Origin: Candidatus Thorarchaeota archaeon
GTDB taxonomy: Archaea; Asgardarchaeota; Thorarchaeia; Thorarchaeales; Thorarchaeaceae
Direction: 5' to 3'
Assembly: GCA_008080745.1 (NCBI GenBank)
Contig: SHMX01000005.1
Coordinates: 120,001 to 152,000, forward strand
DNA: 32,000 nt
The notes below the pieces were generated by a model. It did no database searches, was not told where the DNA came from, and saw nothing but the letters and a program-made list of their open reading frames with translations. Numbering within the stretch: position 1 is the stretch's first letter; every line of letters begins with the position of its first letter. Positions 4,040-31,998 of the stretch are shown here, piece by piece. The position numbers and the translations under genes are program-made.

Positions 4040-5479
4040 ATGACTGGAACTCAAAAAATCGCATTCAGTACCGCTAAAATTTATCTCTCTCAATTTATTG
4101 GTGCAGGTTTTCGTGCAATCACCTTTATTATCATGCTGAATATTATGGGGAGTGTTTTCTTTGGCTTGTTCTCGTTGTCGATAGCCACTGCACTGATGAT
4201 ACAATTGGGTACAATTGGGGGTACCAGCTGGACAATCAACGTTTTCTTCTCTCTCGAAAAGGAGAATCGTCAAAAGGCTCTCACAATAGTTATTCTTGCC
4301 ATAGCATTCCTTTTTTCTATTTTAATAGGGTTGTTTGTCTTCTTCCCCGTGCAGATCTCACAAATTATCGTGGGTGGCGAAATAGTATTTCTTGGCACCC
4401 TTCTTCTATTTCCCATTATAGCAATACGTGCAGCTGCAACTTCTGTTCTGCATGGGACTAGTAATTTTTCCTATGAGGCTCTCTCAACTGTGATTTCCTC
4501 TATTGTTCTCGGCTCTATGATTTTACTTCTCATACAGCTATCTATCTTAACACTCCCGCTTGCCTTTGTGATATATGTACTCTCAGAATTGATTGGTTTT
4601 CTGATTCAGCTTTTACGTTTGAGAAAAGTGGTTTCATTAGAGCTCCCAACCTTAGATGCAATCAAAGAAACTGTAAGATATTCAAAATTTTCCCAGTCTA
4701 CTACTCTGATGATTACACTGGGTCGAGAAGGCTCTTTGATTTTCCTAGGAGTTATTCTGTCAGAAGTTGCTGTTTCAAGTTTCAATATGGCAAATATATT
4801 ATCATCACCACTACTATATCTTGGATCTGCGATTGCTGTTGTACTAGTGCCTTTTGCATCTAAGAATCAATCAATCAGAAAAGCTATAGCTGGTGAGGGT
4901 CTGAAGCACCTATTGATAATGGGCCTAGTTTCAACTCTACTGGTCTGGTGGTTATCACCAACCATTCTTCCTTTACTCTTTATAGAGTACGAGGGATTAA
5001 TTCCTTTGGTCAATCTAACTTGGTTAGCTGCATCAATAGGTGCTGTATCTCAAGCTCTGCGGCCATTGGTCTATTCTATGGAACGTTTTCAAGACGATTT
5101 GATTTCTATAATTATTTCCACTCTTACAGTTTTTCTGACTTTTCTTCTCTTGGTTGGTGAACTTGGTATTCTTGCAATTGCATATGCATACCTAATTAAA
5201 AATTCAACTTGGAGTGTAGCAATATTTTGTCTTCTTCGAAAACAAGATGTTGTTGAATCCACTAGCTCTCTTCTCAAAGGTTTAGGCTTTGGAATGGGTG
5301 GTCTTGGTATTTTCTTGGTATCTGTGATATTTTTTGTACCATTCATTTCTGGAATTATCTCTATTTTGATCTTGATTGTAGTTGGATTAGTGACTGGTTT
5401 AATTAAAGAGGAATTCATTTTTTGGAGAGGCATAATTATGGGAAATGCGCAGGAGGATATTCTTGATACATCTGTATAG
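4040..5479 (+). CDS. Wzx/MOP-type oligosaccharide flippase
   Basis: 479 aa, almost entirely hydrophobic helices (roughly 12-14), with the typical N-terminal pattern (QFIGAGFRAITFIIMLNIMGSVFFGLFS). Sits among glycosyltransferase genes. Confidence 0.8.
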   Translation: MTGTQKIAFSTAKIYLSQFIGAGFRAITFIIMLNIMGSVFFGLFSLSIATALMIQLGTIGGTSWTINVFFSLEKENRQKALTIVILAIAFLFSILIGLFVFFPVQISQIIVGGEIVFLGTLLLFPIIAIRAAATSVLHGTSNFSYEALSTVISSIVLGSMILLLIQLSILTLPLAFVIYVLSELIGFLIQLLRLRKVVSLELPTLDAIKETVRYSKFSQSTTLMITLGREGSLIFLGVILSEVAVSSFNMANILSSPLLYLGSAIAVVLVPFASKNQSIRKAIAGEGLKHLLIMGLVSTLLVWWLSPTILPLLFIEYEGLIPLVNLTWLAASIGAVSQALRPLVYSMERFQDDLISIIISTLTVFLTFLLLVGELGILAIAYAYLIKNSTWSVAIFCLLRKQDVVESTSSLLKGLGFGMGGLGIFLVSVIFFVPFISGIISILILIVVGLVTGLIKEEFIFWRGIIMGNAQEDILDTSV

Positions 5480-5575: not shown

Positions 5576-8455
5576 TCATAATACTCGATATATCTGGACA
5601 GAATCCAGAATAAATATCCAATTCTTTGTCATACTTAGAAATCCAAAACTCAATGATTCAAAACTGCCGTCTGCGGTCCCTGGAGTATTTGTAAGATTCC
5701 ATGTTTGAACAATCCATTGACTTTTCAATGGCAAGTAGTCCGTGTAGAACGAATACCCTCCACTGATATTATCATTATGAAATCCAAAAGCTCGTACCCC
5801 AAGTCCAGAAGTGTTACACTTGTATTTCACCGTAAGAAACATACCCTGCAAACTTTCCATTGAAATGTTGTTTGTAAACAGGTGGTACCAGTAATCTGGA
5901 TTTGCGCTATTCTTTAGTATACAGGTTCCATTCTCAATGATTGGATCTCCCCCCTCATTTGTATACCATGTTGAGTTTACTTCGAATTCTTCTTGATAAA
6001 CGGTGAACTCCTCTTGAATTGGAATATAATCAAGTTCTCTAGCACCATAGATTTTCACATCGTCGATAAATACTATCCAATTATTTTCACTATTGAAGAA
6101 ACTAAAACTCAAGGATTCAAATGGCGTGTTTCTCTCAATCATAATCTCAGTGATATTCCAAGAATAGAGCCTCCAACTAGTAAGGGGATATGTATAGTCG
6201 GATTGAAAGATTCTTTGTCCCTCTAGAAGATCGAATTCATACCCAAAAAGCCTGCATTCAAGATTTGTGGTATTAGTTCTAATCTTTGCTTCCAGATAGA
6301 TATTGTTAACATTTTTGAAACTCATAATATTTGTGAATACGTTATACCACGCAGATTCATGGGATCCTTTCTCAAGTGCTATCTGTTCATTAGATGGTTC
6401 AAGCATTCCTTCATTATCGAACCATTGTGAATCCTCATTGAATGTTTCGTTATAGTATATACTAACATTGTTCTTGCTTAGTATATACACTGCACCAAAT
6501 TTGGCTTCGACTGTGTACTTCGGTGTGAAGAACTTTGCCCACGACTCTCTTTCTAATCCATATCGTCCTACATATAGTGCAGTCTTTATTTTGATGTTTT
6601 CCTGAGCATGCCAGACCCAATCTGTTGTTCGTGGAGATATGAGGATATAGTCTATCCCATTTGTAGTAGATGCGATATTATCGTAATATTCGTCTTCCTC
6701 CCATGCGCTCTCATTGAAGAAATTGAAAATCTGGGGTCTAAGCGGTTGTGTATAAAACCGTTCGTCATTAATGAAATAATAGGATGCACTTGTCAGAATC
6801 TGTGCTCGTAACATTAGCCCAGTTGCAGGATCTGTTAGCACATAATCATCTCCAGATACTCTGCTGTCGAGCCATTGGAATGCATCCATTTCATCTTGAC
6901 GTGGGCCCTGGAGGTCCCATCTTACCGTTTCACTGATTGCTTGAACAGATGCTATCGTAGGTATTGCTAACATCAGAATCATCAATAGTGAAATGGTTCT
7001 TTTTTTATTCAATGTTGGTCTTGTGAAATTTATATTAAGAATACTAACAAAAGCTTTGGATATTGTATAAGCTCCTATTACAATAGCTAACATGATGAAT
7101 GGACGAATATACAGGTCTACCCTTGCAGCAGTAGCTACTGGTAGGAAGAATGCGAGTAGATATAAACAAAGGATTGAAAGAATGATCGTAGAGTTATTTA
7201 CTTGTACAAAACTTATTTTATTATGTGATAGTAGAGCTAGCACCATAATTCCACCCAACAGAAAAAGAATGAATAACCAATGATATGCTCTTGAAAAGAT
7301 TGCTACTTGTAGGGTTAAATTATTGGTCAATCTTAGAAAACCAATACCAAAATTCAGTTCAAAGGGTTGTATTCCAATTAATGGAAGGATGAAATAGTAG
7401 CTAGTAAAAAACACAAGACCTAACAGTATCCCAATCCATATTAAATCGATAATATATTCTGATATCTTTCTATTTTTATAGAAGAAGTAGAGTATTGCTG
7501 GAATTGTTCCTAAAATAGCGTAGGGATACAATACCAATAGGACCAAATAAGCTATGGCTGTGGTGACTTTAACCATTCTATTGTTATTGTTATTAACAAG
7601 AGCGATAATTGTAAGACAATAAATTAGAAATGCATAGGTTGACGTATACAAGTATTGAGGACCCAATAACACCCCTGCTTCATTGACAAGGGGAAATATG
7701 CTTGAAGCAACTATGGAGATTGTTTTGTTTTGAGTAAGTGTCTCCAATAAATGATAGATGAATAATAGTGCAATTGGATAAATTATTACTGGTGCTTGAC
7801 GAAATATGAACGATGGTTCTACTTTTGAGATGATTGCCATTGCGGCTATTGTAGGATGAAATCTATAGGGATATGAATCAAAAAGGAAACTCCCACCATT
7901 ATTTTCTAATAGAAAATTGACTGCAGTAAGGTGATACTGTAGATCACTTCCCGTCGTTGCAGGCCAATGCAATAAAGATAGTCTATATATAATGAATGTA
8001 AAAGCAACCAGTATACAAATTGCGATGCTAATAATCTTCATCCTGTCAAAAGTGATCGTCCTACTTGAGCTAGAGGAAAATGCTTTTTTTGATTTAAAAT
8101 AGATAAACAATCCAATACTAACTGCTCCAACGGATAGTATTGGAATTACTAATGTTAGTAAAAATAGTGATGCAAATAGCAGACATGTCCCCGTAAATAT
8201 TATTGAACTCATGAGAATATCAAGTGAAAGTGTTACTAGAAATCCAAATCTTCCTGAATGTTTATCATATATGAGATTGAAAGCGTTTCTAATCAAATTA
8301 CCTAATATAAAGAATCCAAATATCATGCTCAGAACAATTGATATAATCCCCAATCCTATCATTGATGTGAAATACATCCCTCCTATTACCATAAAATGGC
8401 CTAATAGTTTCTGCTCTAAATTGTATTCTATATTATACTCTTGATTAGGGAACAT
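5576..8455 (-). CDS. Large GT-C/AglB-like membrane protein with two tandem C-terminal beta-rich domains
   Basis: About 500-aa transmembrane region with loop SDLQYH; then EMDAFQWLDSRVSGDDYVLTDPATG (STT3-like soluble-domain start); then two alignable ~137-aa repeats. Confidence 0.65.
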   Translation of the reverse strand: MFPNQEYNIEYNLEQKLLGHFMVIGGMYFTSMIGLGIISIVLSMIFGFFILGNLIRNAFNLIYDKHSGRFGFLVTLSLDILMSSIIFTGTCLLFASLFLLTLVIPILSVGAVSIGLFIYFKSKKAFSSSSSRTITFDRMKIISIAICILVAFTFIIYRLSLLHWPATTGSDLQYHLTAVNFLLENNGGSFLFDSYPYRFHPTIAAMAIISKVEPSFIFRQAPVIIYPIALLFIYHLLETLTQNKTISIVASSIFPLVNEAGVLLGPQYLYTSTYAFLIYCLTIIALVNNNNNRMVKVTTAIAYLVLLVLYPYAILGTIPAILYFFYKNRKISEYIIDLIWIGILLGLVFFTSYYFILPLIGIQPFELNFGIGFLRLTNNLTLQVAIFSRAYHWLFILFLLGGIMVLALLSHNKISFVQVNNSTIILSILCLYLLAFFLPVATAARVDLYIRPFIMLAIVIGAYTISKAFVSILNINFTRPTLNKKRTISLLMILMLAIPTIASVQAISETVRWDLQGPRQDEMDAFQWLDSRVSGDDYVLTDPATGLMLRAQILTSASYYFINDERFYTQPLRPQIFNFFNESAWEEDEYYDNIASTTNGIDYILISPRTTDWVWHAQENIKIKTALYVGRYGLERESWAKFFTPKYTVEAKFGAVYILSKNNVSIYYNETFNEDSQWFDNEGMLEPSNEQIALEKGSHESAWYNVFTNIMSFKNVNNIYLEAKIRTNTTNLECRLFGYEFDLLEGQRIFQSDYTYPLTSWRLYSWNITEIMIERNTPFESLSFSFFNSENNWIVFIDDVKIYGARELDYIPIQEEFTVYQEEFEVNSTWYTNEGGDPIIENGTCILKNSANPDYWYHLFTNNISMESLQGMFLTVKYKCNTSGLGVRAFGFHNDNISGGYSFYTDYLPLKSQWIVQTWNLTNTPGTADGSFESLSFGFLSMTKNWIFILDSVQIYRVL
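5588..5998 (-). repeat. Protein-level repeat unit 2 (YQEEF...DSVQIY) of the 959-aa protein
   Basis: Same conserved blocks as unit 1, in the same order and with near-identical spacing. Confidence 0.85.
6047..6454 (-). repeat. Protein-level repeat unit 1 (YNETF...DDVKIY) of the 959-aa protein
   Basis: Aligns with unit 2 via shared Y.E.F, S.W..NEG, WY..FTN, NT..L..R.FG, DY, W....WN.T, FESLSF.F and NW....D.V.IY. Confidence 0.85.
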
Positions 8456-8554: not shown

Positions 8555-9508
8555 TCAACCATTCGATTCTCTAATCCAGTCAATAGTCAACTCTAATCCT
8601 GTATCTATATCATATTCAGGCTCATAACCCAGATGTTTTCTCGCTTTATCGATGCCTGCAAGACTATCTTTGACATCTCCTATTCTGGGAGGCAGGAACT
8701 CCAAATTAGAACTCGATCCTACTATTTCTTTGATTTTCTTCGCAAGCTCTAAAATAGTGATTCGTGATCCTCCACCCACATTGTATACCTCTCCCTTTGA
8801 TTTTTCTTCGAGTGCAGCAAGGATATTACACTTTACTACATCCTTTACAAAGGTGAAATCTCGCGTTTGTTCTCCCTCTCCCTCGATAGTTAATGGTCTA
8901 TTATCAAGAGCTTGATTTATGAAGACACTAATCACACCTGCATATGATCCACTTCGTTGTCGGGGGCCATATACATTGAAATATCTCAGTGCGGTTATAT
9001 CCATGCCATATGTTTTACTGAATGCTATAGCAAGATTCTCTCCAGCAAGTTTTGATGCTGCATAGGGGGATAATGGATTTGTTGGCATGGTTTCTATTTT
9101 TGGTAAAACTGGGGTATCTCCATAGACAGAAGACGAGGATGCAACAACTATTTTGGAAACATCTCTTTTCCGGCATTCATTTAGAAGTATAGCAGTACCT
9201 TGAGAATTGACATCCATTGTTAGACAAGGGTGTTTAGTGGAAAAGGGAACACTTACTTTTGCTGCTTCATGGAAAACAATCTCTGCTTCTTTGAGCACCT
9301 CATATACAGTGGCTGAATTTCTGATATCCTTTCTTTGAAGCAAAAAATTGTTATGTGTCTTCCAACCTTCCAAATTTGTTTCTGTACCATTACTTAAATC
9401 ATCAATAACTGTAACTATTGCATTATGTACCAATAGATAGTCTACTATATGTGATCCAATAAAACCCGCTCCTCCGGTTACAACTATTCTTTTCTCATCT
9501 AGCTTCAT
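8555..9508 (-). CDS. NAD-dependent nucleotide-sugar epimerase (extended SDR; UDP-Glc/GlcNAc(A) 4-epimerase-like)
   Basis: TGGAGFIG, FHEAA, ASSSSVYG, YAASK (YxxxK), LRYFNVYGPRQ, QTRDFTFVKD, RIGDVKDS. Confidence 0.9.
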   Translation of the reverse strand: MKLDEKRIVVTGGAGFIGSHIVDYLLVHNAIVTVIDDLSNGTETNLEGWKTHNNFLLQRKDIRNSATVYEVLKEAEIVFHEAAKVSVPFSTKHPCLTMDVNSQGTAILLNECRKRDVSKIVVASSSSVYGDTPVLPKIETMPTNPLSPYAASKLAGENLAIAFSKTYGMDITALRYFNVYGPRQRSGSYAGVISVFINQALDNRPLTIEGEGEQTRDFTFVKDVVKCNILAALEEKSKGEVYNVGGGSRITILELAKKIKEIVGSSSNLEFLPPRIGDVKDSLAGIDKARKHLGYEPEYDIDTGLELTIDWIRESNG

Positions 9509-19632: not shown

Positions 19633-20844
19633 TTAATTCTTATTAGCCATTTGCATTAAGAAATCTCTCATTTCCATTCCTATACTTTCAATACTCAATT
19701 TTTTTTCTACATATTCCCTTCCTTTACAACCCAGGAATGTTGATTTTTGTGGATTTTCCTTTAGTTCAATTATTGAATCGGCTAATTGTCTGAAGTCGCC
19801 TGGTTTAATCACAATTCCAGAATGACTTTCAGTAACGTATGCTCCTGGTTGTCCGCTTGAACAACAAAGAATTGGTTTTCCCATAGCTTGATACTCATAA
19901 AGCTTCGATGATATTCCCTTTTCTATAGACCCAACTCCACAAAGGGGTAAAAGGACCACGTCCGCTTCATTTATGATTCGTGCTACTTCATCACGACTCA
20001 CTATTTTTTCCCGTACCTCAATGTTATTTGATTCTACTTGGCTTTCTAATTTTCTTAGCAAATCAATCATTTCTCCCCCTCCTTGTATTAGGAATCTAAT
20101 ATCTTTATATTCCGCCAATAATTCGGCCGCTCGAAATATCTGCTCAAAATTATAAGTTGGAGAGAACGCACCAATATAAAGGACTGTAAAAAAGTTGGAT
20201 CTCTTAGATATTTTTTGGGGTTTAAACCGCTCAATATCTACTCCTGCCTTGATTACTTTAATCTTTCCAGAATTTACACCATACTTTCTTATTATCGTCT
20301 TTTTATAGGCTGGACTAATGGGTGTAATCCCATCAGCTGTCTTATATGAAAATGCTGCCAAATATCCACCAATTCGCCCCATTATTGATTTCTTTCTCAC
20401 ACCCAAGTCAAAGAGAACTTCTGGCCATAGATCATCGACATTTTGTATCAATGAACAATCATAAACAAACCGATATATTAATCCTGCAAAGATTCCAATC
20501 ACGTTGGGATTTGCTGTCCAAATCACATCAGCTTTTCGGATGTAGGGAATTGCAAGAAGTGAGGAGATAATAAAAGAAAAGAATAGAATGATTCTTCGCA
20601 AAAAACCATCAGATTTTATTGGGGGCACAAAAGTACGAATTGTTTTTATTTTTCCTTGAAGTTCAACAAGGAATGGCTTTTTCAAATATTTACTGGGAAT
20701 TTTACCATCTGGATAATGTGGTGTAGCACATACTACTGTAACATCTACACCCGAGCTGATAAGGCCCCTTGCCACATTGTAAGCTCTAGTAGCCCCTCCT
20801 CCCATATCGGGGGGAAAGTATTGTGAGATAATTATGACCCTCAT
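19633..20844 (-). CDS. Glycosyltransferase family 4, WbuB/WcaI-like subgroup
   Basis: SQYFPPDMGGG, PHYPDG, QNVDDLWPE, LYIGAFS and SSKLYEYQAMGKPI. Confidence 0.88.
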   Translation of the reverse strand: MRVIIISQYFPPDMGGGATRAYNVARGLISSGVDVTVVCATPHYPDGKIPSKYLKKPFLVELQGKIKTIRTFVPPIKSDGFLRRIILFFSFIISSLLAIPYIRKADVIWTANPNVIGIFAGLIYRFVYDCSLIQNVDDLWPEVLFDLGVRKKSIMGRIGGYLAAFSYKTADGITPISPAYKKTIIRKYGVNSGKIKVIKAGVDIERFKPQKISKRSNFFTVLYIGAFSPTYNFEQIFRAAELLAEYKDIRFLIQGGGEMIDLLRKLESQVESNNIEVREKIVSRDEVARIINEADVVLLPLCGVGSIEKGISSKLYEYQAMGKPILCCSSGQPGAYVTESHSGIVIKPGDFRQLADSIIELKENPQKSTFLGCKGREYVEKKLSIESIGMEMRDFLMQMANKN

Positions 20845-21095: not shown

Positions 21096-21881
21096 ATGAG
21101 AATTTTTCTAATTACAGCTGCTGAGCCATTTTATATCCCACATTTCCTGAAAGGATTTCTTGAAAAGTATCAGGGTGAATTAGTTGGTGTTGCCTTAATC
21201 CCTCCACATCCAAGGAAGATGTCCTTCTTTAGATACATCAAAAATCACTACAATCTTTATGGACTCAAAGATTTCATTCGAATGGGTTTTCGTTATTTCA
21301 AGAAAAAATATGTTCATAAAGTTATGAGATCTATAGGATTTAATCGCCCTCTTGATGCAGAACATCTACTCAAAAAACATGGTTGTCCCATACATAGGCC
21401 TAAAAATGTCAATAGCAGCAAATTTAGAGAAACATTGAAAGACTATGATTTGGATCTCATCGTTTCAGTAGCTTCGAGTCAAATATTTAAAACGAAATTA
21501 TTGAATCTACCAAAAATTGGTTGTATAAACATGCATGGTTCATTATTACCCAAACATAAGGGTATTAACCCAAGCTTTTGGGCTTTACTTGAGGGCGATC
21601 GTGAAACAGGTATCTCTGTACATTTTATGGACGAAAGCATTGATACTGGAAAAGTCCTCAAACAGCAAAAGGTTCCTATATTAGAGAATGAAACATTGGA
21701 TAGTCTTTCAAAGAAAATTGCAAATTTGGGAGTAGATGTACTCATAGAAGCTCTTAATCTAATAGAAAGTGGTATTGCAGATAAAAAGGCATTTTACCCA
21801 ACAGGTGAGGGATCGTATCACTCATTTCCAACCAAATCTGAAGGAAAAGAATTTCGCAAGAAGGGGAAGAAATTTCTTTGA
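21096..21881 (+). CDS. Formyltransferase (N10-formyl-THF-dependent, Fmt-like fold; probable sugar N-formyltransferase)
   Basis: NVNS, DLIVSVASSQIF, INMHGSLLPKHKGINP and GISVHFMDESIDTG (Asn-His-Asp catalytic set). No Fmt C-terminal domain. Confidence 0.88.
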   Translation: MRIFLITAAEPFYIPHFLKGFLEKYQGELVGVALIPPHPRKMSFFRYIKNHYNLYGLKDFIRMGFRYFKKKYVHKVMRSIGFNRPLDAEHLLKKHGCPIHRPKNVNSSKFRETLKDYDLDLIVSVASSQIFKTKLLNLPKIGCINMHGSLLPKHKGINPSFWALLEGDRETGISVHFMDESIDTGKVLKQQKVPILENETLDSLSKKIANLGVDVLIEALNLIESGIADKKAFYPTGEGSYHSFPTKSEGKEFRKKGKKFL

Positions 21882-22714
21882 AACGAATTGTTTGCTTTAC
21901 TCTAGATGTTGAGCCAGATTATGGGCAGGATCACATAGACAATATTGAATTAGTAGAAGAGTTGATTGAGGAATCTACTTTTTTAGACTTGATTTCTAGT
22001 CCGATAGAATTCAAATTAACCGCTTTCGTAGTTGGATCAATACTGGAAAAAAATCCGGAAATTGTTGACCGTCTAATAGAGTTCGATGCTGAAGTCGAAC
22101 TTCATTCATACAGTCATAAAATGTATAGAGAACGTCGTCCTGATATTGTCAGAGGCCTAGATATATACCGTGAAATAGTGGGACGTCTACCATATGGATA
22201 TCGAGCACCACAGGGAGCGATTTCTTTAGAAGAGATAGAAGTTCTTGACAGTTATGGGGTTTTATTTGATTCTAGTGTATTTCCTTTTTTTAGATTGGGG
22301 CAGTACAGTTTTTTTCATGCACCTCAAACTCCCTATCTTATTAGAAATTCTTCTGTAGTTGAATTTCCCATTGCATCAATTCCGCATCTTCGGTTGCCCA
22401 TATCTCTAAGCTATATGATGCTGTTTGGAAGAAGTATCTATGAACGATTATTCAGGACTTTCGGATTACCCGAAATACTTGTTTTTGACTTTCATTTACA
22501 CGATTTAACTCCCTCAAAAGCGTATAATGATCTATCAAAATTTTGGCAGATTATATATGGCAGGATTTACAAACAGAATCCGATAGAACAATTTCAAAAT
22601 TTTGTATCTTACCTAAGAAATCTAAACTATACTTTTATGAATATGAGAGAGTTATATAATTATATTCGCAAAAACAAATTTAATGAATTTTTGAAAACAT
22701 CTGCTTTTGGATGA
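21878..22714 (+). CDS. Polysaccharide deacetylase family protein (NodB/CE4-like)
   Basis: FTLDVE, LTAFVVG, ELHSYSH, GYRAP, FDSS, FDFHLHD. The TTG start overlaps the formyltransferase TGA (TTGA). Confidence 0.85.
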   Translation: MKRIVCFTLDVEPDYGQDHIDNIELVEELIEESTFLDLISSPIEFKLTAFVVGSILEKNPEIVDRLIEFDAEVELHSYSHKMYRERRPDIVRGLDIYREIVGRLPYGYRAPQGAISLEEIEVLDSYGVLFDSSVFPFFRLGQYSFFHAPQTPYLIRNSSVVEFPIASIPHLRLPISLSYMMLFGRSIYERLFRTFGLPEILVFDFHLHDLTPSKAYNDLSKFWQIIYGRIYKQNPIEQFQNFVSYLRNLNYTFMNMRELYNYIRKNKFNEFLKTSAFG

Positions 22715-22809: not shown

Positions 22810-23745
22810 TTGGTGACTTACAAAATGGATAAGGTTCTCATAACTGGCGGAGTAGGATTTATTGGCACAAATCTTCGACAAGAACTTGATAAACGCGGAT
22901 ACAACACTTGGATATGTGATATTTCCCATTCCAACGAATCCAAATTCATAAGATGTGATGTCGGTTCATATCGTCAACTAGAAAAAACCATTCAAAAAGT
23001 ACAACCTGATTATGTGTATCATGCAGCTGCTGAGTATGGCCGTTGGAATGGCGAGGCTCATTATGAAAACCTTTGGTTAACAAATGCTGTTGGCACAAAA
23101 AACATTCTGAAGATGCAAAAGGAATTTGGTTTCAAAATGATATTCTTTGGTAGTGCAGAAGTTTATGGTGATTATGACGGACTAATGAAGGAGGATGTCA
23201 TGGAAACTGTACCACTAAAGCAAATGAATGATTATGCTATCTCCAAATGGGTAAACGAGATGCAGATTCTAAATTCTGCAGATATGGATCATACCGAATC
23301 AGTTCGAGTTCGACTATTCAATGTATATGGACCTCATGAGCATTACAATCCCTTTAGAGGCGTAGTTCCTGTTTTCATTTATCGTCTTCTTCATGGTTTG
23401 CCAATTACGGTTTACAAGGGACACAAACGTACTTTTGAATATGTGAAGGATATTGTTAGAACGTTCGCTAATATAATTGACAATTTTGTTCCTGGTGAAG
23501 TTTATAATTTAGGCAGTGAAACCCAATACCCTATTGAAAATTTAGCAGAGATTACTCTCAAATATACTGGTGCTGATAAATCATTGGTCACTTACAAAGG
23601 TGAAGAGGCATTTACTACCCGATTCAAGAAAGCTGATTCTTCAAAAGCGCAAGCACAACTCGATCATGATATTACTATTTCTCTTGATGAAGGTATAAAA
23701 CGAACAGTGGAATGGTTTAAAAAAGAATACCATGTAGGCGGGTAA
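22810..23745 (+). CDS. NAD-dependent nucleotide-sugar epimerase/dehydratase/oxidoreductase (extended SDR)
   Basis: TGGVGFIG, YHAAAEYGRWNGE, FGSAEVYG, YAISK, RLFNVYGP. The likely start is ATG 22825. Confidence 0.88.
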   Translation: MVTYKMDKVLITGGVGFIGTNLRQELDKRGYNTWICDISHSNESKFIRCDVGSYRQLEKTIQKVQPDYVYHAAAEYGRWNGEAHYENLWLTNAVGTKNILKMQKEFGFKMIFFGSAEVYGDYDGLMKEDVMETVPLKQMNDYAISKWVNEMQILNSADMDHTESVRVRLFNVYGPHEHYNPFRGVVPVFIYRLLHGLPITVYKGHKRTFEYVKDIVRTFANIIDNFVPGEVYNLGSETQYPIENLAEITLKYTGADKSLVTYKGEEAFTTRFKKADSSKAQAQLDHDITISLDEGIKRTVEWFKKEYHVGG

Positions 23746-23748
23746 AAA

Positions 23749-24768
23749 ATGGATTATTCAAAAATTCTGGATAAGTATGAAAACTCTGTAGTTTTGATTA
23801 CTGGTGGTGCTGGATGTATAGGCAGCAATCTTGTACGGATATTATTATCAGGTAGTCCACGAAAGGTGATTGTTCTTGATGATTTCTCCTCCTCTTATCT
23901 ATGGAATCTGCCAAAAGATAATCGACTTGATGTTGTGGAGGGAAGCATTCTCGAAGAACAGAAATTGAAACAGGTATTTTACGAACGCCCTGATTTTGTT
24001 TTTCATCTAGCAGCCCATTTTGCAAATCAAAATAGTATCGACCATCCTGAAACCGATTTAATGGTAAATGGTCTTGGTCATCTTCGTATCATGGAATATG
24101 CCAGACTCACTGAACCCCAGAGAGTATTCTTTGCCGGTTCTGGTTGTTCTGTTTATGGAAGTCATGCTCCAATTCCCTTCAAGGAAACTATGGTATCCCT
24201 TACTCTTGATACACCCTATCAAATTCACAAATTACTCGGAGAACTATATTGTAATCACTATCATGAAACTTATGATCTAAAGACTACAAATGGCAGATTT
24301 TTCAATGTCTTTGGACCTGGTGAAGTCCCAGGTCCCTATCGAAATGTCATTCCAATCTTTACCTGGCGGGCAATGCATGAAAAACCTCTACTTATTACCG
24401 GAACTGGTGATGAAACTCGTGACTTCGCTTATGTAGGTGATGTTGTAAATGGAATCCTTCGAATGGGTGTTTTTGAAAAGGCAGTGGGTGAAGCAATAAA
24501 TCTCGCGTCAGGAAAAGAAACCAGCATCAAAGAGCTGGCTACACTCATCAATGAGATTACAGGTAACCCTGCTGGAATTGAATATCGTCCAAAGAGATCC
24601 TGGGATAAATCCAATAGACGTCTTGCCTCTATTGCAAAGGCAAAGGAATTGATTGGATATGAACCTCAGATGGAATTCAAACAGGGTCTCAAAAATGTTC
24701 ACGGGTGGTTGAAATCTTACAAATCTAATATTGTTGAGAGTATTGGGCCCTCTGCAGGTTTGTGGTAA
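23749..24768 (+). CDS. Extended SDR, WbmF-like putative nucleotide-sugar 3,5-epimerase
   Basis: TGGAGCIG, HLAAHFANQNS, FAGSGCSVYG, PYQIHK, RFFNVFGPGE, NLASGKETSIKELATLINEITGN, PKRSWDKS. These blocks match my recollection of Bordetella WbmF. SDR call is firm; the 3,5-epimerase function is inferred. Confidence 0.7.
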   Translation: MDYSKILDKYENSVVLITGGAGCIGSNLVRILLSGSPRKVIVLDDFSSSYLWNLPKDNRLDVVEGSILEEQKLKQVFYERPDFVFHLAAHFANQNSIDHPETDLMVNGLGHLRIMEYARLTEPQRVFFAGSGCSVYGSHAPIPFKETMVSLTLDTPYQIHKLLGELYCNHYHETYDLKTTNGRFFNVFGPGEVPGPYRNVIPIFTWRAMHEKPLLITGTGDETRDFAYVGDVVNGILRMGVFEKAVGEAINLASGKETSIKELATLINEITGNPAGIEYRPKRSWDKSNRRLASIAKAKELIGYEPQMEFKQGLKNVHGWLKSYKSNIVESIGPSAGLW

Positions 24769-24955: not shown

Positions 24956-26392
24956 CTACGATACCAAATCTTTCACATGAAATATTCCCACCACATTAGT
25001 TCTCCCTGGAATATGTTTCACGCCTGAGGTGAAAACGATATCCTTTCCGATATCCAACAATCCTTGGTGAAAAACTGTTCTCACAGCTTCCTTTACTAAA
25101 TCATCCACACTATCCAAGTCCTGCTCATATTTTACCGAGTGTACTCCCCATAGCAATCTTAGCCGTCTCATTACCGTAGCATCTCTTGCAACAGCATAAA
25201 TATTCGTTGGTGGCCTGAATTTTGATATCCATCTTGCTGTAAAGCCACTTCGGGTTGCTGTAACAATTCCATCTATTTTATCGGGAAGAAGTGATACTGT
25301 GTTGTATACAAGATTACCAATGACCTCTACAATCATTTTCTTGGGTGAAGTGATATCCATCGGATCAACGGGAGTTATTCGTTTCTCAGCACGGCGTATG
25401 ATTCGATTCATAAGTGAAACAGCAGCAGGTGGATTGTGCCCCATTGCGGTTTCTCCACTTAGCATGACTGCGTCAGCTCGGTCAAATATAGCATGAGCTA
25501 CATCACTGACCTCTGCACGAGTAGGCATACTCTCATGAGTCATGGATTCTAGCATGTGAGTTGCTACAATTGACGGTCTTGCCCACATGTTAGCCTTTCT
25601 AATGAGGTCTCTCTGGAGCACAGGAACCTCTTCTATGGGTGCTTCTATTCCAAGATCACCTCGAGCTATCATGACACCATGTGACTCGCGCAGAATCTCA
25701 TCATAATTATCTATGGCAAGTTTATGTTCTATCTTGCTTATCAGGTCAACATTTTTAGGTCCATTCTCTCGAACGATATCATCTACCCTTTTCACGTCGT
25801 CTGCATCGAGAACAAAGGAGAGAGCAATCAGGTCAGGTTCAATTTCCGCTGCTAGATCCAAGTCATCTAAATCCTTCTCGGTGGGAAGGTGACAGGATAG
25901 ACGGATTCCAGGCACATTAACACCTTTTCTGCTGGATATCGGACCGCCTTGTACAATTTCTGTGACAACCTCTGAGCCCTCAGTCGACTTGACCATGAGT
26001 CGCACGATTCCGTCATTAATAGCGATAAAGTCTCCGGGGTTAACATCATCTGGAAGTTCTTTATGTGAGACCGATACTCGATGTTCATCACCAACAAAAT
26101 CTTCAACTGAGATTCTGAATTCATTACCTGTTTCAAGCTCAACTGGTTCTTGCATCTCACCTATACGAATCTTTGGACCCTGAAGATCTATAAGCACTGC
26201 AATAGTATCATCCACTGACCGAATTGTTTCCAGAGTCTTTTTTGCGGTGGGGTGGTCCTCGTGTGACATATTGATTCTAGCAACGTCCATACCTGCCTCA
26301 ATCATTTTTACTAGTACACCCTCAGAACGAGAAGCGGGGCCAATGGTACATACTATCTTGGAGCGGGTCATTTCATTCATTATCGATACCAA
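24956..26392 (-). CDS. pyk: Pyruvate kinase (K+-independent signature)
   Basis: KIVCTIGPAS, RINMSH, DLQGPKIRIG (Leu/Gln/Lys/Ile signature of the K+-independent cluster), KIEH, ARGDLG, TRAEVSD, MLSGETA. The true start may be one of the downstream Mets (MNEMTRS). Confidence 0.97.
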   Translation of the reverse strand: MVSIMNEMTRSKIVCTIGPASRSEGVLVKMIEAGMDVARINMSHEDHPTAKKTLETIRSVDDTIAVLIDLQGPKIRIGEMQEPVELETGNEFRISVEDFVGDEHRVSVSHKELPDDVNPGDFIAINDGIVRLMVKSTEGSEVVTEIVQGGPISSRKGVNVPGIRLSCHLPTEKDLDDLDLAAEIEPDLIALSFVLDADDVKRVDDIVRENGPKNVDLISKIEHKLAIDNYDEILRESHGVMIARGDLGIEAPIEEVPVLQRDLIRKANMWARPSIVATHMLESMTHESMPTRAEVSDVAHAIFDRADAVMLSGETAMGHNPPAAVSLMNRIIRRAEKRITPVDPMDITSPKKMIVEVIGNLVYNTVSLLPDKIDGIVTATRSGFTARWISKFRPPTNIYAVARDATVMRRLRLLWGVHSVKYEQDLDSVDDLVKEAVRTVFHQGLLDIGKDIVFTSGVKHIPGRTNVVGIFHVKDLVS

Positions 26393-26557
26393 CTCTTATT
26401 CTCTACTTTAGCAGATATAGGTGATTGTCTATTGAAGCATATGCTCATAGACCTATTCATCATCTACCATTTCATCATTTGAATGTATCATTGGCATAGA
26501 TTCAATTATGACTTGGTCTATAGTTTCTCTTGAGAAAGATTAAGGATTGTTTCTATA

Positions 26558-27856
26558 ATGGTCAAGATTAAGAATATTCATGCTATGGAGATATTAGACT
26601 CTCGTGGAAATCCAACGTTGATGGCAAAAGTCACTCTAACAGATGGAAGCACGGGGGTGGCTCGTGTTCCAAGTGGCGCATCTACTGGAGCTAATGAAGC
26701 TCTGGAACTACGGGATGGTGGTTCTCGCTATGGTGGAAAAGGAGTTCAGAAAGCGGTGGGTCATGTCAACAAGACTATCGCAGAAAATCTAACTGATTTT
26801 GATCCGTTATCTCAGAAGGCAATAGATGATGCCATGATTGCACTCGATGCTACAAAAGACAAGTCAAACTTTGGTGCTAATGCAATTCTTTCTGTTTCAA
26901 TGGCGACAGCGGTAGCTGCAGCTACACATCTGGAATTGCCCTTGTTTGAGTATCTGCGAACCAAAGTCTTGGGAATGCCTCCAAAATATCTGCAACCAGT
27001 TCCGATGTCGAATGTCATCAATGGTGGTTCTCATGCAGGAAATGATTTAGCAATACAAGAGTTCATGATTCTCCCTGTTGGAACAGATAACATCCTTGAT
27101 GCTGTTCGAATGATTGCGGAGGTCTATCATAAACTTGGAAAGAACATGGTTGCAAAATATGGTCGTATGGCTAAACATATCGGTGATGAGGGTGGTTTCT
27201 GCGGCTTTGGATTGAGGTCGACTGCAGATGCGATTGAGGAAATTCTCAAGGCAGTAGTTGATGCAGGTTATTCTCCCAAAGATGATATTGTTCTGGGTAT
27301 GGATGCAGCTGCGACAGAGTTTCATGCTGGTGGTAAGTATACCATCGATGGCAAGACTCTTGATTCTGGTGAACTTCTTGAGTTTTATCTTGGACTCGAA
27401 AAGACCTATCCTCTCAAGACACTTGAAGATCCATTCGATGAGTCCGCCTTTGTTGATTTCACTGAACTTACCAAAAAGACCGAGATGCAGATTGTAGCAG
27501 ATGATCTGACGGTATCCAATCCTGATATTGTAAAGAAGGCAATAGAAGTGGGTGCAGGTAATTCTTTACTATTGAAAGTGAACCAGATTGGAAGTGTGAC
27601 AGAAGCTATTGAGGCAGCTCGGCTTGCGAATGATGCCAAATGGTCGGTCGTAGTAAGCCATCGAAGTGGTGAAACCTGTGATACATTTATTGCAGACTTA
27701 GCAGTTGGATTGAGCACCGGACAGATTAAGACTGGAGCTCCAGCAAGAAGTGACCGAGTTGCAAAGTACAATCGTCTACTTGAGATAGACACAATCCTTG
27801 AAGGAGAATGTTCCTATCCCGGAAGGGATTTTGATACTGCATGGAGGAACTTCTAG
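26558..27856 (+). CDS. eno: Enolase (phosphopyruvate hydratase)
   Basis: EILDSRGNPT, VPSGASTG, EALELRD, QEFMI, GDEGG, EDPF, DDLTV, LLKVNQIG, SHRSGET, GQIKTGAPARSDR. Confidence 0.98.
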   Translation: MVKIKNIHAMEILDSRGNPTLMAKVTLTDGSTGVARVPSGASTGANEALELRDGGSRYGGKGVQKAVGHVNKTIAENLTDFDPLSQKAIDDAMIALDATKDKSNFGANAILSVSMATAVAAATHLELPLFEYLRTKVLGMPPKYLQPVPMSNVINGGSHAGNDLAIQEFMILPVGTDNILDAVRMIAEVYHKLGKNMVAKYGRMAKHIGDEGGFCGFGLRSTADAIEEILKAVVDAGYSPKDDIVLGMDAAATEFHAGGKYTIDGKTLDSGELLEFYLGLEKTYPLKTLEDPFDESAFVDFTELTKKTEMQIVADDLTVSNPDIVKKAIEVGAGNSLLLKVNQIGSVTEAIEAARLANDAKWSVVVSHRSGETCDTFIADLAVGLSTGQIKTGAPARSDRVAKYNRLLEIDTILEGECSYPGRDFDTAWRNF

Positions 27857-27859
27857 GCA

Positions 27860-29101
27860 ATGACGGAAAAGAGAGCTGCCATTCTTTTAGTGATGGACGG
27901 TGGAGGTGATCGTGGAGTCAAAGACTTGGACGGACAGACTCCGTTTCAAGCGGCTCATACCCCTAATCTCGATAGCTTAGCCAAGTCCGGACAAAATGGC
28001 CTTCTCGATGTCATTGGCCCTGGAATCACTCCCGGAAGTGATACTGCACATCTGGCTTTGTTTGGATATGACCCTGCTAGCACCTATCCTGGTCGAGGGC
28101 CATTAGAGGCATTAGGAGCGGGTCTTGATTCTCGTCCTGGGGATGTTGCATTTCGCTCAAATTTTGCTACCGTTAATGATGACATGGTAGTTCTTGATAG
28201 GCGTGCTGGACGTGACTTCACAGAAGAAGAGGGGAAGGCATTCAAGGAGGTTATCGACAAGCTGACTATCGAAGATGTAACTGTCCACTTCACCCATACT
28301 GTTGAGCATCGGGGTGCGCTTATTCTTCGAGGACCAAATCTTTCAGCAGATATCACTGACATAGACCCTCATGAAACTGGTGAAAAAATCCTTACCTGCG
28401 AAGCTGAGAATGAAGAAGCTGAAAAAACTGCGAGAATAATCAATAAGATGATTGAAGAGGTTCATAATCGAATGAAGGGTCTCAAAGTAAATCAAGAAAG
28501 GGAGGAGCGAGGATTGCCTCCAGCCAATGTTCTTCTTCTTCGAGGCCCCGGCAAACATCAAAATGTTTCCACATTACAGAATCGTTTTGGAATCCGTTCT
28601 GCAGTTATTGCTGGTGGTGCATTGTATATTGGGACAGCTAAATATGTCGGAATGGAGCACCTGCCTGTTGATGGACAGACTGGAACCATTGAAACCAACT
28701 TCACCAACATTGCAAAAAAGACCATTGAGGCTGTAGAAACGGGGTTTGACTATCTATTCCTTCATATCAAAGCTACTGATAATGCAAGCCATGATATGAA
28801 CTATGAAGAGAAGATATTGGCAATTGAGAAAACAGATGAGATGATCGGGCGAATTCTAGAAAGAGTATCAGATAAGATTGTTATCGGTATAACCGGAGAC
28901 CATACTACTCCCGTTACAGTGGGCGATCATACATGTGACCCAGTTCCCTTGACCATCTGGGCTGATTTCATTCGTTCTGATGATGTAGAACACTTTTCTG
29001 AGTTCCATGCAGCTAATGGTTCACTACATGGGATTAGGGGAAAAGATGTGATGAACTTACTTTTAGGCTATGCAGGACATATTGAGAAATATGGAGCATA
29101 A
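27860..29101 (+). CDS. apgM: 2,3-bisphosphoglycerate-independent phosphoglycerate mutase, archaeal type
   Basis: MDGGGDR, TPNLD, PGSDTAHL, YPGRGPLEALG, AFRSNFAT, EHRG, HIKATDNASH, TGDHTTP. Starts 3 nt after the eno stop. Confidence 0.95.
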   Translation: MTEKRAAILLVMDGGGDRGVKDLDGQTPFQAAHTPNLDSLAKSGQNGLLDVIGPGITPGSDTAHLALFGYDPASTYPGRGPLEALGAGLDSRPGDVAFRSNFATVNDDMVVLDRRAGRDFTEEEGKAFKEVIDKLTIEDVTVHFTHTVEHRGALILRGPNLSADITDIDPHETGEKILTCEAENEEAEKTARIINKMIEEVHNRMKGLKVNQEREERGLPPANVLLLRGPGKHQNVSTLQNRFGIRSAVIAGGALYIGTAKYVGMEHLPVDGQTGTIETNFTNIAKKTIEAVETGFDYLFLHIKATDNASHDMNYEEKILAIEKTDEMIGRILERVSDKIVIGITGDHTTPVTVGDHTCDPVPLTIWADFIRSDDVEHFSEFHAANGSLHGIRGKDVMNLLLGYAGHIEKYGA

Positions 29102-29105
29102 ATTG

Positions 29106-29127
29106 AAAAAGAGAGGGAAATCCTCTC
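29106..29127 (-). terminator. Short hairpin plus U-tract between convergent apgM and dehydrogenase
   Basis: GAGAGG-GAAAT-CCTCTC at 29111-29127, preceded by AAAAA (a U5 tract on the minus strand), right after the dehydrogenase stop. Confidence 0.45.
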
Positions 29128-29129
29128 CT

Positions 29130-30473
29130 CTATCTCTTTATGCCAGACTTGCCGACTGCTCTGTACTCAAAACCTGCTTTTTCCACACTTTTCTGGTCCC
29201 AGACGTTTCTTCCATCCACAATTATTGGTGTCCGCATGATTGATTTCAATTTCTCTAAATCGGCATCAAAGTATTCTTTATGTTTGGTCACTAATACTAG
29301 ACAATCCGCGTCTTTGGCGCAATCGTATAGATCTCGCTCGATCTCGTGTTGTGTGAACTCCCATTGATGCACATATGGATCATGCAATACCAGTGTTGCT
29401 CCTTTGGTCTGAAGAGATCCAATCAATGGAACTGCTGGTGTATTTCTGGTGTCATCAGCGTTCTCAAGGTATGCTACTCCAAGTACGACAATTTTCGCGT
29501 CGTGTACAGATACACCTCTTGCGAGAAGTGCATTCTCAACAAGATTGGAGAGATGAACTGGCATGTGATTGTTGATACGCCGTGCGACAGATATGAACTC
29601 AGGCTCAATCTTCCATGAACCATATTCATAGAGCCCAAATCTTAGAAGCCAAGGATCTTTTGGTAAACAGTGTCCGCCTACTCCAGCTCCTGGAATATGC
29701 ATGTGCCTGTCGTGGCGTGCATTAATCAATTCAATTATCTCGTATATATTTACTCCAAGACTCTCACAGACCAGAGCCATCTCATTGGCAAATGCGATAT
29801 TCACATCTCGGTATGCATTCTCAATAGTCTTTGCTAGTTCTGCACTCAGAGTATCGGTTGTATATATCTTCTCTTTGATAATTTTCGAGTACATCTCAAG
29901 GGCTCGTTCGGTACTCTTTGGTGTAATACCACCTACTACTCTGGGCATATTTACAATGAATTCGAGAAGTTTCCCTGGCATAACTCGTTCGTATGAGAAT
30001 GCAAGATCAAAATCTTCTCCACCCTTTAGGCCCGATTCTTTCTCAAGGATTTTTTGGACTACATTTTGAGTTGTTCCTGGAGCAACTGTTGACTCAACTA
30101 CAACCATAGCTCCCTTTTTCATTCTCTGTCCAATGTTTTTGCTTACCTCTCTTAAGGACACATACTGGGGCATATTTTGGGCATCGGTTGGTGTCTGCAC
30201 ATCGATAAGGATGATGTCTGCATCTTTTAGGATATCGATGTCATCTGTTACTCTGAATGTACCCTTTTCAACTACTTTGGCAATCAATTCATCTAGGCCA
30301 GGCTCATCACCCTCAAAGGGGGATTTTCCACTATTGAGCACATCTATCTTCCAACCGGAACGCTTTGATCTACGTTGCAGACCTATTACATCATAACCAT
30401 CCACATCAGCAAGCAAAGCCGCTGCTGGAATTCCTACATAACCCATACCAATTACAACAATCCTTGTAGTCAT
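29130..30473 (-). CDS. UDP-N-acetylhexosamine 6-dehydrogenase (WecC/WbpA-type nucleotide-sugar dehydrogenase)
   Basis: GMGYVG, VQTP, ESTVAPGTT, ERVMPG, ELAKTIENAYRDVNIAFANE, GVGGHCLPKDP, LGVAY, DTRNTP, IVDGRN. Confidence 0.92.
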   Translation of the reverse strand: MTTRIVVIGMGYVGIPAAALLADVDGYDVIGLQRRSKRSGWKIDVLNSGKSPFEGDEPGLDELIAKVVEKGTFRVTDDIDILKDADIILIDVQTPTDAQNMPQYVSLREVSKNIGQRMKKGAMVVVESTVAPGTTQNVVQKILEKESGLKGGEDFDLAFSYERVMPGKLLEFIVNMPRVVGGITPKSTERALEMYSKIIKEKIYTTDTLSAELAKTIENAYRDVNIAFANEMALVCESLGVNIYEIIELINARHDRHMHIPGAGVGGHCLPKDPWLLRFGLYEYGSWKIEPEFISVARRINNHMPVHLSNLVENALLARGVSVHDAKIVVLGVAYLENADDTRNTPAVPLIGSLQTKGATLVLHDPYVHQWEFTQHEIERDLYDCAKDADCLVLVTKHKEYFDADLEKLKSIMRTPIIVDGRNVWDQKSVEKAGFEYRAVGKSGIKR

Positions 30474-30719: not shown

Positions 30720-31403
30720 GTGATTCAAATAAAATTTCCAATCTCAAGTTTTACCGTGCGTGCCATAAAAAATCGGGTAAAAAGGATAGTAACAAGAAAG
30801 AGATCGATTAAATTCCCTAATCCCTGGATGGAAGCTGAAGAGATAGCTTTGATTGATCACTTATTCGGACGTGTGGCACCAGAGCGATGTCTGGAATGGG
30901 GCTGTGGTGGAAGTACCCTGCATTTTTCAAAGATACTTCAAGACACATCATGGGATTCAATTGAACATGATTTTCGTTGGTATAAGATTATATCCAGCTA
31001 TCTAGAACCAAAGCCAAATTGTACAATTCATCATGTTCCTTTTGGTAGTGAAACAGATTCCAGTCAAGAAGAGGTCGAGTCCTATGTCAATTTTCCTGAC
31101 ACCCTGGGAGGAGATTTTGACTTTATTCTGGTTGATGGCCGGAAGCGTGTCAAGTGTCTGAGAAAAACAAAAGACATCCTCAGTAGAAGAGGAATTGTGA
31201 TGCTTCATGACGCTGGTCGTGCTCGCTATCAGAGCGGACTGGAGGGATTTGCTTTTGGATATATGTTTAGATTACCCTGGTATCATATTGGTGTATGGGT
31301 TGGTGGAATGAACAAGTCATTGGTGAAATATTATGGTATTGATGGGCTATTCAAAGAATGGCAGATGCTCTTATATCTCTATGATTTTATTGGACTATAT
31401 TAG
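30720..31403 (+). CDS. Class I SAM-dependent methyltransferase (probable glycan O-methyltransferase)
   Basis: PWM, LEWGCGGST, SIEHD, FDFILVDGRKR, LHDA. The start is uncertain (GTG 30720 or ATG 30828). Confidence 0.75.
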   Translation: MIQIKFPISSFTVRAIKNRVKRIVTRKRSIKFPNPWMEAEEIALIDHLFGRVAPERCLEWGCGGSTLHFSKILQDTSWDSIEHDFRWYKIISSYLEPKPNCTIHHVPFGSETDSSQEEVESYVNFPDTLGGDFDFILVDGRKRVKCLRKTKDILSRRGIVMLHDAGRARYQSGLEGFAFGYMFRLPWYHIGVWVGGMNKSLVKYYGIDGLFKEWQMLLYLYDFIGLY

Positions 31404-31515: not shown

Positions 31516-31998
31516 CTATCGGAATTCTTCTATATACATGATTCTCATTTCGAATGCTTCTGCAAATTCCTCTCCCACAAAAGGACCTCTATAGCGCATA
31601 TTAGCTTCTAGACTCTTTCTAGAAAAATACGGTCTTCTTTCCAATTCGGATTTATACTCCCAAAGCGCTTTAAGTTTGGTTTCAACCTCCTTTTTAGTTA
31701 GTGGAACGAAAACGTTGGGTGAAAACCCTTGACAGTCCAAGGGCACTTCATAACTCAATAAAGTAGATTTTGTCCCCTTAAACGCTCTGAATGCCTCATG
31801 AGCTATAACTGCATGGTCTTGATGCACATCTTTTTCCCAATGAGTGAATACAATATCAAAATGAGTTTCTTTTCTAAGATCATAGAGATATTGGAGAATT
31901 TCTTGTCGATAAGCAGGTAATTTTCTAACAGGGAAGTCTAGTATTCTCAGATCTTGAATCCCAACAATCTTCGAGGCATTGACACATTCTTTTCTTCT
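31516..31998 (-). CDS. PIG-L/LmbE-family de-N-acetylase, 5'-truncated by the window
   Basis: The frame is open from 31998 (RRKECVNASKIVG...FDIVFTHWEKDVHQDH), then LLSYEVP, PNVFV, KLKAL..YKSE, AEAFE. The ORF-track start at 31827 is internal. Confidence 0.85.
   Translation of the reverse strand, partial: RRKECVNASKIVGIQDLRILDFPVRKLPAYRQEILQYLYDLRKETHFDIVFTHWEKDVHQDHAVIAHEAFRAFKGTKSTLLSYEVPLDCQGFSPNVFVPLTKKEVETKLKALWEYKSELERRPYFSRKSLEANMRYRGPFVGEEFAEAFEMRIMYIEEFR

Follow-up and report, generated by a model that had tools for sequence, protein, structure and literature searches.

The 32,000-nucleotide window analyzed here (positions 120,001 to 152,000 of contig SHMX01000005.1, assembly GCA_008080745.1, from a Candidatus Thorarchaeota archaeon) contains two genes for extended short-chain dehydrogenases/reductases (SDRs), SDR1 and SDR2, which are co-directional on the forward strand with a gap of 3 nucleotides between them. 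SDR2 (P0002; 23749-24768, 339 residues) is an Mth375-type, WbmF-like protein, and SDR1 (P0001; 22810-23745) is an Mth373-type protein resembling UDP-xylose synthase (UXS); the TTG start of SDR1 at 22810 is doubtful because the alignment with Mth373 begins at an ATG at 22825, which is the probable true start. The pair closes a string of four co-directional genes, opened by a formyltransferase consisting of the N-domain only (21096-21881, forward strand; PF00551 at residues 96-220) and a polysaccharide deacetylase family protein (21878-22714, forward strand; PF01522), the latter overlapping the formyltransferase gene by 4 nucleotides and ending 95 nucleotides before SDR1. The nearest solved relatives of the formyltransferase are Fmt N-domains, GDP-perosamine N-formyltransferase, and the N-domain of ArnA. 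Just upstream and divergent from this string is a WbuB/WcaI-like family 4 glycosyltransferase (GT4; 19633-20844, reverse strand), and further along the window is a nucleoside diphosphate (NDP)-sugar 6-dehydrogenase (29130-30473, reverse strand), whose best match, an archaeal UDP-N-acetylmannosamine (UDP-ManNAc) dehydrogenase, falls below the model cut-off.

Both proteins have the GxxGxxG site and catalytic triad of extended SDRs, with NAD motifs GGAGCIG in SDR2 and GGVGFIG in SDR1, triads of S131, Y157, and K161 and of S115, Y142, and K146, respectively, and an acidic residue after beta-2 (D44/D45 in SDR2) that marks each as NAD type. The SDR2 motifs listed in the original prediction are all present in the translation of 23749-24768: HLAAHFANQNS at residues 86-96 (nucleotides 24004-24036, with HFANQ at residues 90-94), S131-G132-C133 (24139-24147), Y157-Q-I-H-K161 (24217-24231), and, in the C-terminal half, ASGKETSIKELATLINEITGN together with PKRSWDKS. 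These are not chance resemblances; H90-F-A-N-Q, S131-G-C133, Y157, and K161 do not vary among the 120 database relatives closest to SDR2, and neither do the further marker residues N186, R198-N199, R283, W285, and R290-R291. SDR1 carries E75-Y-G-R78-W, S115-A-E117, Y142xxxK146, N171, and K273, of which S115-A-E117, Y142 and K146, and K273 are invariant across 61 orthologues. Neither SDR reaches the cut-off of any curated NCBIfam model, and the ESM Atlas offered generic names only.

The best match to SDR2 among solved structures is Mth375 of Methanothermobacter thermautotrophicus (PDB 6PMH/6PNL; E 9e-122, residues 9-322), and the second best is Bordetella WbmF (PDB 2PZJ; E 8e-57, HMMER alignment), with which SDR2 has in common the predicted C-terminal blocks asgketsi..lat.ineitgn and pkr.wd.s. 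With a family profile, Mth375 scores 520 bits and WbmF 270, and these are followed by Thermotoga maritima GalE (199), Pal (162), WbpP/WbgU (∼160), UDP-glucuronic acid 4-epimerase (152), UXS (145), and GME, a 3,5-epimerase of GDP-mannose (101, at about rank 39), so that the proposed likeness of SDR2 to WbmF is borne out. For SDR1, the best solved match is Mth373 (PDB 8W3U/9AR1; E 2e-114) and the next is human UXS; profile scores are 547 bits for Mth373, 138 for UXS, 134 for Mth375, 122 for Pal, and ∼105 for RmlB. A GMD/GMER-like 4,6-dehydratase assignment for SDR1 is disfavored, as UXS ranks above all dehydratases and GMD is outside the top 60 with the family profile. Judged by sequence, SDR2 is the orthologue of Mth375 and SDR1 that of Mth373, and both are new members of a family that is structurally described and biochemically uncharacterized. 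The Mth375 pocket fingerprint (HFANQ, SGC, YQxxK, FFNV, EVPGxYRNV, and ETRDx; Table 4 of PMC12820599) is family-invariant and is present in SDR2 with the exception of the gatekeeper residue. Representatives clustered at 50% identity include a large SDR clade sharing xFANQ, S/T/A-x-C, RNV, and RxW, with S-G-C (Mth375 type), A-G-C with [FY]HGNQ (WbmF type), and large S-S-C/YAISK subgroups; none of eight clade representatives scanned was at a curated NCBIfam cut-off.

Crystal structures of both orthologues were reported by Carbone et al. (FEBS J 2025; PMC12820599), who named Mth375 a WbmF and noted that it keeps a catalytic Ser129, unlike WbmF, with a neighboring active-site Cys131, which carries a chemical modification in the crystals. 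That Cys lines the sugar pocket of Mth375 (PMC12820599), which answers the concern, raised in the original prediction, that it might point away from the sugar. Because a possible 3,5-epimerase role for Mth375 was argued there from the same features (WbmF-like, Ser kept, active-site Cys), the 3,5-epimerase idea for SDR2 is a rediscovery of a hypothesis published for its orthologue; the authors also raised synthesis of N-acetyltalosaminuronic acid (TalNAcA) as a possible role (PMC12820599). Mth373 was assigned as a UDP-xylose synthase from structure only and was crystallized with UDP-xylose; it has Lys275 at the UXS Arg position and no equivalent of the second Tyr (Table 3, PMC12820599). In the analysis of King et al. 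(2007; PMC2279256), 3,5-epimerases are characterized by a Cys plus a basic residue, these being Cys145 and Lys217 in GME, Cys109 and His179 in GMER, and Cys133 with either His90 or Asn213 in WbmF, which is a proposed UDP-ManNAc3NAcA 3,5-epimerase whose function is predicted only.

Combining the SDR2-WbmF alignment with the published Mth375/WbmF/GalE fingerprint and the King et al. assignment of Asn213, we equate Ser131, Cys133, Phe91, and Asn199 of SDR2 with Ala131, Cys133, His90, and Asn213 of WbmF, the last corresponding to His179 of GMER. The Ala that the original prediction placed at the Ser position of WbmF is confirmed by this alignment and by both reports (PMC2279256, PMC12820599), and SDR2 does keep Ser, Tyr, and Lys along with a Cys at the epimerization-Cys position of GME and GMER, aligned to WbmF Cys133. 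Ser131 is family-invariant, unlike the Ala of the WbmF type, the His of HFANQ is one residue earlier than WbmF His90, and the position of GME Lys217 and GMER His179 is Asn199. The predicted 3,5-epimerase features therefore stand as regards the Cys but not as regards a basic catalytic partner. T. maritima GalE has T-G-G where SDR2 has S-G-C. The gatekeeper is Arg291 in SDR2 and all 120 closest relatives versus Leu289 in Mth375, where it makes the C6 pocket hydrophobic; since its relatives carry an invariant Arg, Mth375 is atypical for its own family at this position. In SDR1, both the Thr/Ser-x-Glu and YxxxK signatures of UXS and ArnA are present.

To place the pair in context, 80 metagenome loci were collected with the family alignment, with SDR2 called in 79; a scan of genome contigs with a single protein as query yielded four loci. 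SDR1 is encoded directly upstream of SDR2 in 49 of 58 loci, a WecB-family 2-epimerase scoring above the TIGR00236 cut-off is no more than three genes upstream of SDR2 in 33 of 54, and a GT4 at least 40% identical to that at 19633-20844 is no more than three genes downstream in 26 of 52. The pairing with an Mth373-type SDR that characterizes the Mth375 type is thus seen in the metagenome loci as in the window, and among relatives and distant taxa with enough flank, SDR1 is directly upstream of SDR2 everywhere except in an Archaeoglobus locus (L016). In many other loci the SDR pair is followed by a GT4 orthologous to that of the window (42-59% identity), and the predicted partnership of this GT4 with the SDRs is consequently a conserved one. 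A family 2 glycosyltransferase (GT2) of ∼300 residues, nearest to PpgS/AglJ/dolichyl-phosphate-hexose transferases but below cut-off, occurs in 37 loci. Among the 41 long loci (at least eight genes), an NDP-sugar dehydrogenase is near the pair in three, a deacetylase is present in three, and a formyltransferase in none. The SDR pair is the core of a mobile archaeal cassette that begins with WecB, a non-hydrolyzing UDP-GlcNAc 2-epimerase, and continues with SDR1, SDR2, and a WbuB/WcaI-like GT4, to which a dolichyl-phosphate-sugar-synthase-like GT2 is often added.

Two side observations concern the cassette. A ∼98-residue TIGR04076-family protein is encoded just upstream of WecB in 15 loci (e.g., L082:3131-3427). 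The exceptional L016 (Archaeoglobus sulfaticallidus CP005290, 16749-35747) is a cassette variant without an adjacent Mth373-type gene, in which WecB is followed by a 719-residue fusion of zinc alcohol dehydrogenase-like and Gfo/Idh/MocA domains, with two other SDRs and a DegT aminotransferase 4-8 kb downstream.

The NDP-sugar dehydrogenase behaves differently from the pair. Of 15 family genomes sampled, 14 carry an orthologue with at least 69% identity, within a conserved pyk-eno-apgM-dehydrogenase block, and SDR2 orthologues (at least 58% identity) occur in only 5 of 24 same-family genomes (G005, G010, G015, G023, and G016, the last cut by a contig end); with these frequencies the dehydrogenase does not co-vary with the SDR pair. 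It is a family-core gene outside the SDR module and a possible substrate supplier only, and we do not retain it as the pathway member it was proposed to be. An NDP-sugar dehydrogenase is present elsewhere in 10 of 11 orthologue-bearing genomes, never adjacent to the pair, and none was seen in the remaining one (G115, completeness not known). Around a true WbmF-type (A-G-C) gene, two more SDRs are encoded together with an NDP-sugar dehydrogenase, a Gfo/Idh/MocA oxidoreductase, and a DegT aminotransferase, as well as a 2-epimerase and an amidotransferase of the Asn-synthase-like kind, which together make up a full di-N-acetyl uronic acid context (WbpA/B/E/I-type). Neither the window nor the cassette loci show such a context (WbpA/B/E/D/I plus two further SDRs).

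The distribution of the family bears on the suggestion that the locus makes the pseudomurein sugar. The host genome is 3.16 Mb and 98% complete, with an archaeal 16S gene and no mcrA by a search that matched the control methanogens, and the closest named relatives of SDR2 (62-72% identity) are 'Candidatus Thorarchaeota' proteins from metagenome-assembled genomes (MAGs). Only Methanobacteriales and Methanopyrales are known to form pseudomurein (PMC12820599), and a Thorarchaeota-like host without mcrA is therefore not expected to make it. The contig of a Thorarchaeota relative (P0022) has the same order of SDR1, SDR2, pyruvate kinase, enolase, apgM, and dehydrogenase; no SDR2 orthologue was found in a genome of the same genus (G001). 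Copies with at least 60% identity are present in Archaeoglobus sulfaticallidus, Odinarchaeota, Verstraetearchaeota, Thermococci, Nitrososphaerales, and Thermofilaceae, and the pair is found at 55% identity in a bacterial Syntrophaceticus MAG and at 51% in a complete mcrA-positive 'Euryarchaeota' chromosome (G041), from a phylum with almost no pseudomurein-binding repeats in which 11 of 151 genomes carry an orthologue. A search for those repeats (PF09373) gave no match in the host genome or G041, but none in any control genome either. The gene is not restricted to pseudomurein-forming lineages, and neither 'epimerase' nor 'Mth375' appears in the main text of a pangenomic study devoted to the genes for pseudomurein. 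The SDR2 family is widespread and patchy, and it is not tied to pseudomurein, given its spread across non-pseudomurein archaea and a bacterium. As a side observation on the host, its 16S match (G000:C2:589938-592348) spans 2411 nucleotides versus a 1478-position model, so that at least one large insertion or intron is probably present in the gene.

The explanation we favor, although we put it at no better than an even chance, is that SDR1 and SDR2, as Mth373 and Mth375 orthologues, form a two-enzyme nucleotide-sugar module in a variable surface-glycan island, with SDR2 as a transient-keto C3/C5 epimerase. SDR2 is probably a C3/C5 epimerase for a sugar derived from an N-acetylhexosamine (HexNAc). 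WecB would supply a manno-configured HexNAc, and SDR1, with its Ser-Ala-Glu and YxxxK motifs and its closeness to UXS, would act at C4/C6 of a UDP-HexNAc-derived sugar, through uronate decarboxylation or a related transient 4-keto reaction. SDR2, with its full Ser/Tyr/Lys triad and tight NAD site, would then transiently oxidize C4, Cys133 at +2 would invert C5 and/or C3, and C4 would be reduced again. The result would be an epimerized, probably L-series, sugar installed by the GT4. The 2-N-acetyl group may be swapped for formyl in this genome, as suggested by the deacetylase and formyltransferase having joined the operon. Should SDR2 prove to be a C3/C5 epimerase, its product could plausibly be an L-sugar that is decarboxylated or modified at C6 in some other way, although this falls somewhat short of an even bet; N-acetyl-L-galactosaminuronic acid (L-GalNAcA) or L-GalNAc from UDP-ManNAc(A) is possible, a 6-deoxy-L-HexNAc such as N-acetyl-L-fucosamine (L-FucNAc) a little less so, and L-TalNAcA highly improbable.

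Several observations weigh against this explanation. The acid-base pair is only half present in SDR2, as the positions of the basic partner are occupied by Phe91 and Asn199, and in SDR1 the position of UXS Arg277/ArnA Arg619 is taken by the invariant K273, while its orthologue Mth373 has no equivalent of the second Tyr. No WecB is encoded in the window, and the only one in the genome is on another contig. Carbone et al. reported no enzyme assay, and their docking was inconclusive (PMC12820599); the activity of WbmF, like that of Mth375, has never been measured (PMC2279256, PMC12820599). Finally, the relatives nearest to SDR2 whose activity has been shown are 4-epimerases (T. maritima GalE and WbpP/WbgU), together with Pal and UXS. 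The original prediction was to be abandoned if the closest characterized homologues proved to be plain 4-epimerases or decarboxylases, which is true of the nearest assayed enzymes; WbmF is closer but has never been assayed.

This last point keeps alive the alternative of a UXS-type SDR1 whose step is followed by simple 4-epimerization of a UDP-sugar by SDR2, as in the conversion of UDP-xylose to UDP-L-arabinose or of the N-acetyl-pentosamine equivalents, which we consider unlikely but worth retaining because all of the assayed near relatives are 4-epimerases (GalE at 199 bits, WbpP/WbgU at ∼160, and UDP-glucuronic acid 4-epimerase at 152). The Uxs-Uxe operon of Sinorhizobium is an example of UXS followed by a 4-epimerase, and here too the SDR1 and SDR2 genes are nearly always adjacent, the nearest assayed relative of SDR1 is human UXS (138 bits), Mth373 was crystallized with UDP-xylose, and a pocket crowded by Phe, Asn, Cys, and Arg would suit a sugar lacking C6. 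Yet the assayed 4-epimerases lack a Cys at +2 (GalE has T-G-G), whereas it is invariant in the SDR2 family; few loci have a dehydrogenase close by (3 of 41); and the WecB of the cassette implies HexNAc rather than glucose or glucuronic acid chemistry. Carbone et al. further argue that 4-epimerization by Mth375 would need a large movement of Asn91 and is ruled out for acetylated sugars (PMC12820599).

Less probable, in our estimation, is that SDR2 is a self-sufficient 3,5-epimerase that takes UDP-D-ManNAcA, the product of WecB and a dehydrogenase of WecC type, to UDP-L-GalNAcA, a parallel to the reaction proposed for WbmF. In its favor, L-galacto donors are known among the substrates of WcaI/WbuB-type GT4s, no solved protein apart from the orthologue is closer than WbmF, WecB is in the cassette, a WecC-like dehydrogenase is kept in the family of this genome, and the invariant gatekeeper Arg291 could bind a carboxylate. 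A possible parallel is the module of two neighboring genes, WeeE/WeeF (GnlA/GnlB), that is postulated to make UDP-L-GalNAcA in Acinetobacter. But inheritance of the dehydrogenase is not coupled to that of the pair, and few cassettes include one (3 of 41 loci), with none seen in the orthologue-bearing G115 (completeness not known), and the always-present UXS-like SDR1 would be left without a role, or with one that destroys the carboxylate. Moreover, genuine WbmF types (A-G-C, FHGNQ) occur in WbpA/B/E/I contexts with three SDRs, unlike the cassette. The other sugar named in the original prediction, UDP-L-TalNAcA made by 3,5-epimerization of UDP-N-acetylglucosaminuronic acid, can be set aside as extremely improbable: its stereochemistry holds (inversion at both C3 and C5 is what turns D-gluco into L-talo), and Mth375 does come from a pseudomurein organism and its authors raise the possibility (PMC12820599), but the 98%-complete host lacks mcrA and has Thorarchaeota as its closest named relatives, orthologues at 51-63% identity are common in non-pseudomurein archaea (including 11 of 151 genomes of one phylum) and extend to a bacterial MAG, the distribution is patchy even within genus and family, and the main text of the pseudomurein pangenomic study mentions neither 'epimerase' nor 'Mth375'.

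Returning to the C3/C5-epimerase module, we suggest more tentatively, and with distinctly less conviction, that the cassette could be an undescribed archaeal (and in some cases bacterial) route from UDP-ManNAc to an L-galacto-type amino sugar, in which the Mth375 types would be the first self-sufficient UDP-sugar 3,5-epimerases, pairing a Cys at +2 with a partner that differs from the Lys/His of GME/GMER. If so, the L-galacto candidates would be UDP-L-GalNAc(A) or a decarboxylated or 6-deoxy derivative, here in an N-formyl form. Mth375 had been a candidate in the continuing search for the enzymes that form TalNAcA, the sugar of pseudomurein; that Mth375 and Mth373 orthologues travel together in archaea without pseudomurein weakens this candidacy and indicates a general surface-glycan role. 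What is new here is the cassette and its distribution outside pseudomurein formers, and the four-gene unit is available for experiments on an archaeal sugar.

In the window, the SDR pair is at the edge of a ∼24-kb low-GC glycan island (30-36% GC), adjacent to glycolysis genes with 41-44% GC. The variable portion at 1-21000 (30-37% GC) encodes five GT4s, one polysaccharide pyruvyl transferase (10901-12058), a pair of Wzx-like flippases (4040-5479 and 16218-17723), a further GalE-like SDR (8555-9508) that is 35% identical to SDR2, and four large open reading frames (ORFs) without a Pfam match (2079-3806, 5576-8455 [959 residues], 14481-16199, and 17726-19570); a DegT aminotransferase is encoded ∼4 kb before the window start. 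On the other side, a block at 24956-30473 comprises pyruvate kinase, enolase, archaeal-type phosphoglycerate mutase, and the NDP-sugar dehydrogenase, in an order kept in family relatives. Where present, the SDR pair sits at the pyruvate-kinase edge of this block, which has the look of a site where glycan genes integrate repeatedly. Just past the dehydrogenase are a 227-residue protein with a weak methyltransferase match (30720-31403) and a PIG-L family de-N-acetylase ORF that runs past the window end (31516-31998), a second de-N-acetylase near the locus. An Arn-like reading of the formyltransferase, a deformylase, and a decarboxylase was set aside, as no aminotransferase, ArnC-like GT2, or ArnT-like gene is among the window ORFs scanned, four large ones of which have no family match, and it is also weakened by the absence of a formyltransferase from the 41 other long loci.

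Comparison with known systems places the locus closest to that of Mth375 and Mth373. Mth375 aligns with SDR2 along the whole protein at high identity and is like it in HFANQ, SGC, YQxxK, FFNV, EVPGxYRNV, ETRDx, R..W, the retained Ser, and the Mth373-type partner; it differs in its gatekeeper (Leu289 versus Arg291) and in its host, a methanogen rather than a non-methanogenic Asgard archaeon. The loci also differ, in that here no GT2 gene separates the SDR genes and a formyltransferase and a deacetylase are encoded upstream. Mth373 is like SDR1 over its full length, including EYGRW, S-A-E, YAxxK, N171, and Lys in place of the UXS Arg, with no notable difference. WbmF (PDB 2PZJ, 2Q1S) has in common with SDR2 the Cys at +2, the Asn213/Asn199 position, RxW, a K/R-R gatekeeper, and the C-terminal ASGKETSI..INEITGN block, but has Ala for the triad Ser, His90 (with a cis peptide) for Phe91, and a 14-residue insertion. 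GME and GMER resemble SDR2 in the extended SDR fold, the Ser/Tyr/Lys triad, and a Cys two residues past the Ser, but have a basic Lys217 or His179 where SDR2 has Asn, use GDP- rather than UDP-sugars, and are of low similarity (101 bits for GME). In gene logic the nearest parallel is the bacterial fnlA-fnlB-fnlC-wbuB module for L-FucNAc, which likewise combines two SDRs, a WecB-family 2-epimerase, and a WbuB-like GT4; its SDRs belong to other subfamilies, and SDR1 and SDR2 weakly match a WbcJ-type reductase model and PseB, so that the likeness is one of organization.

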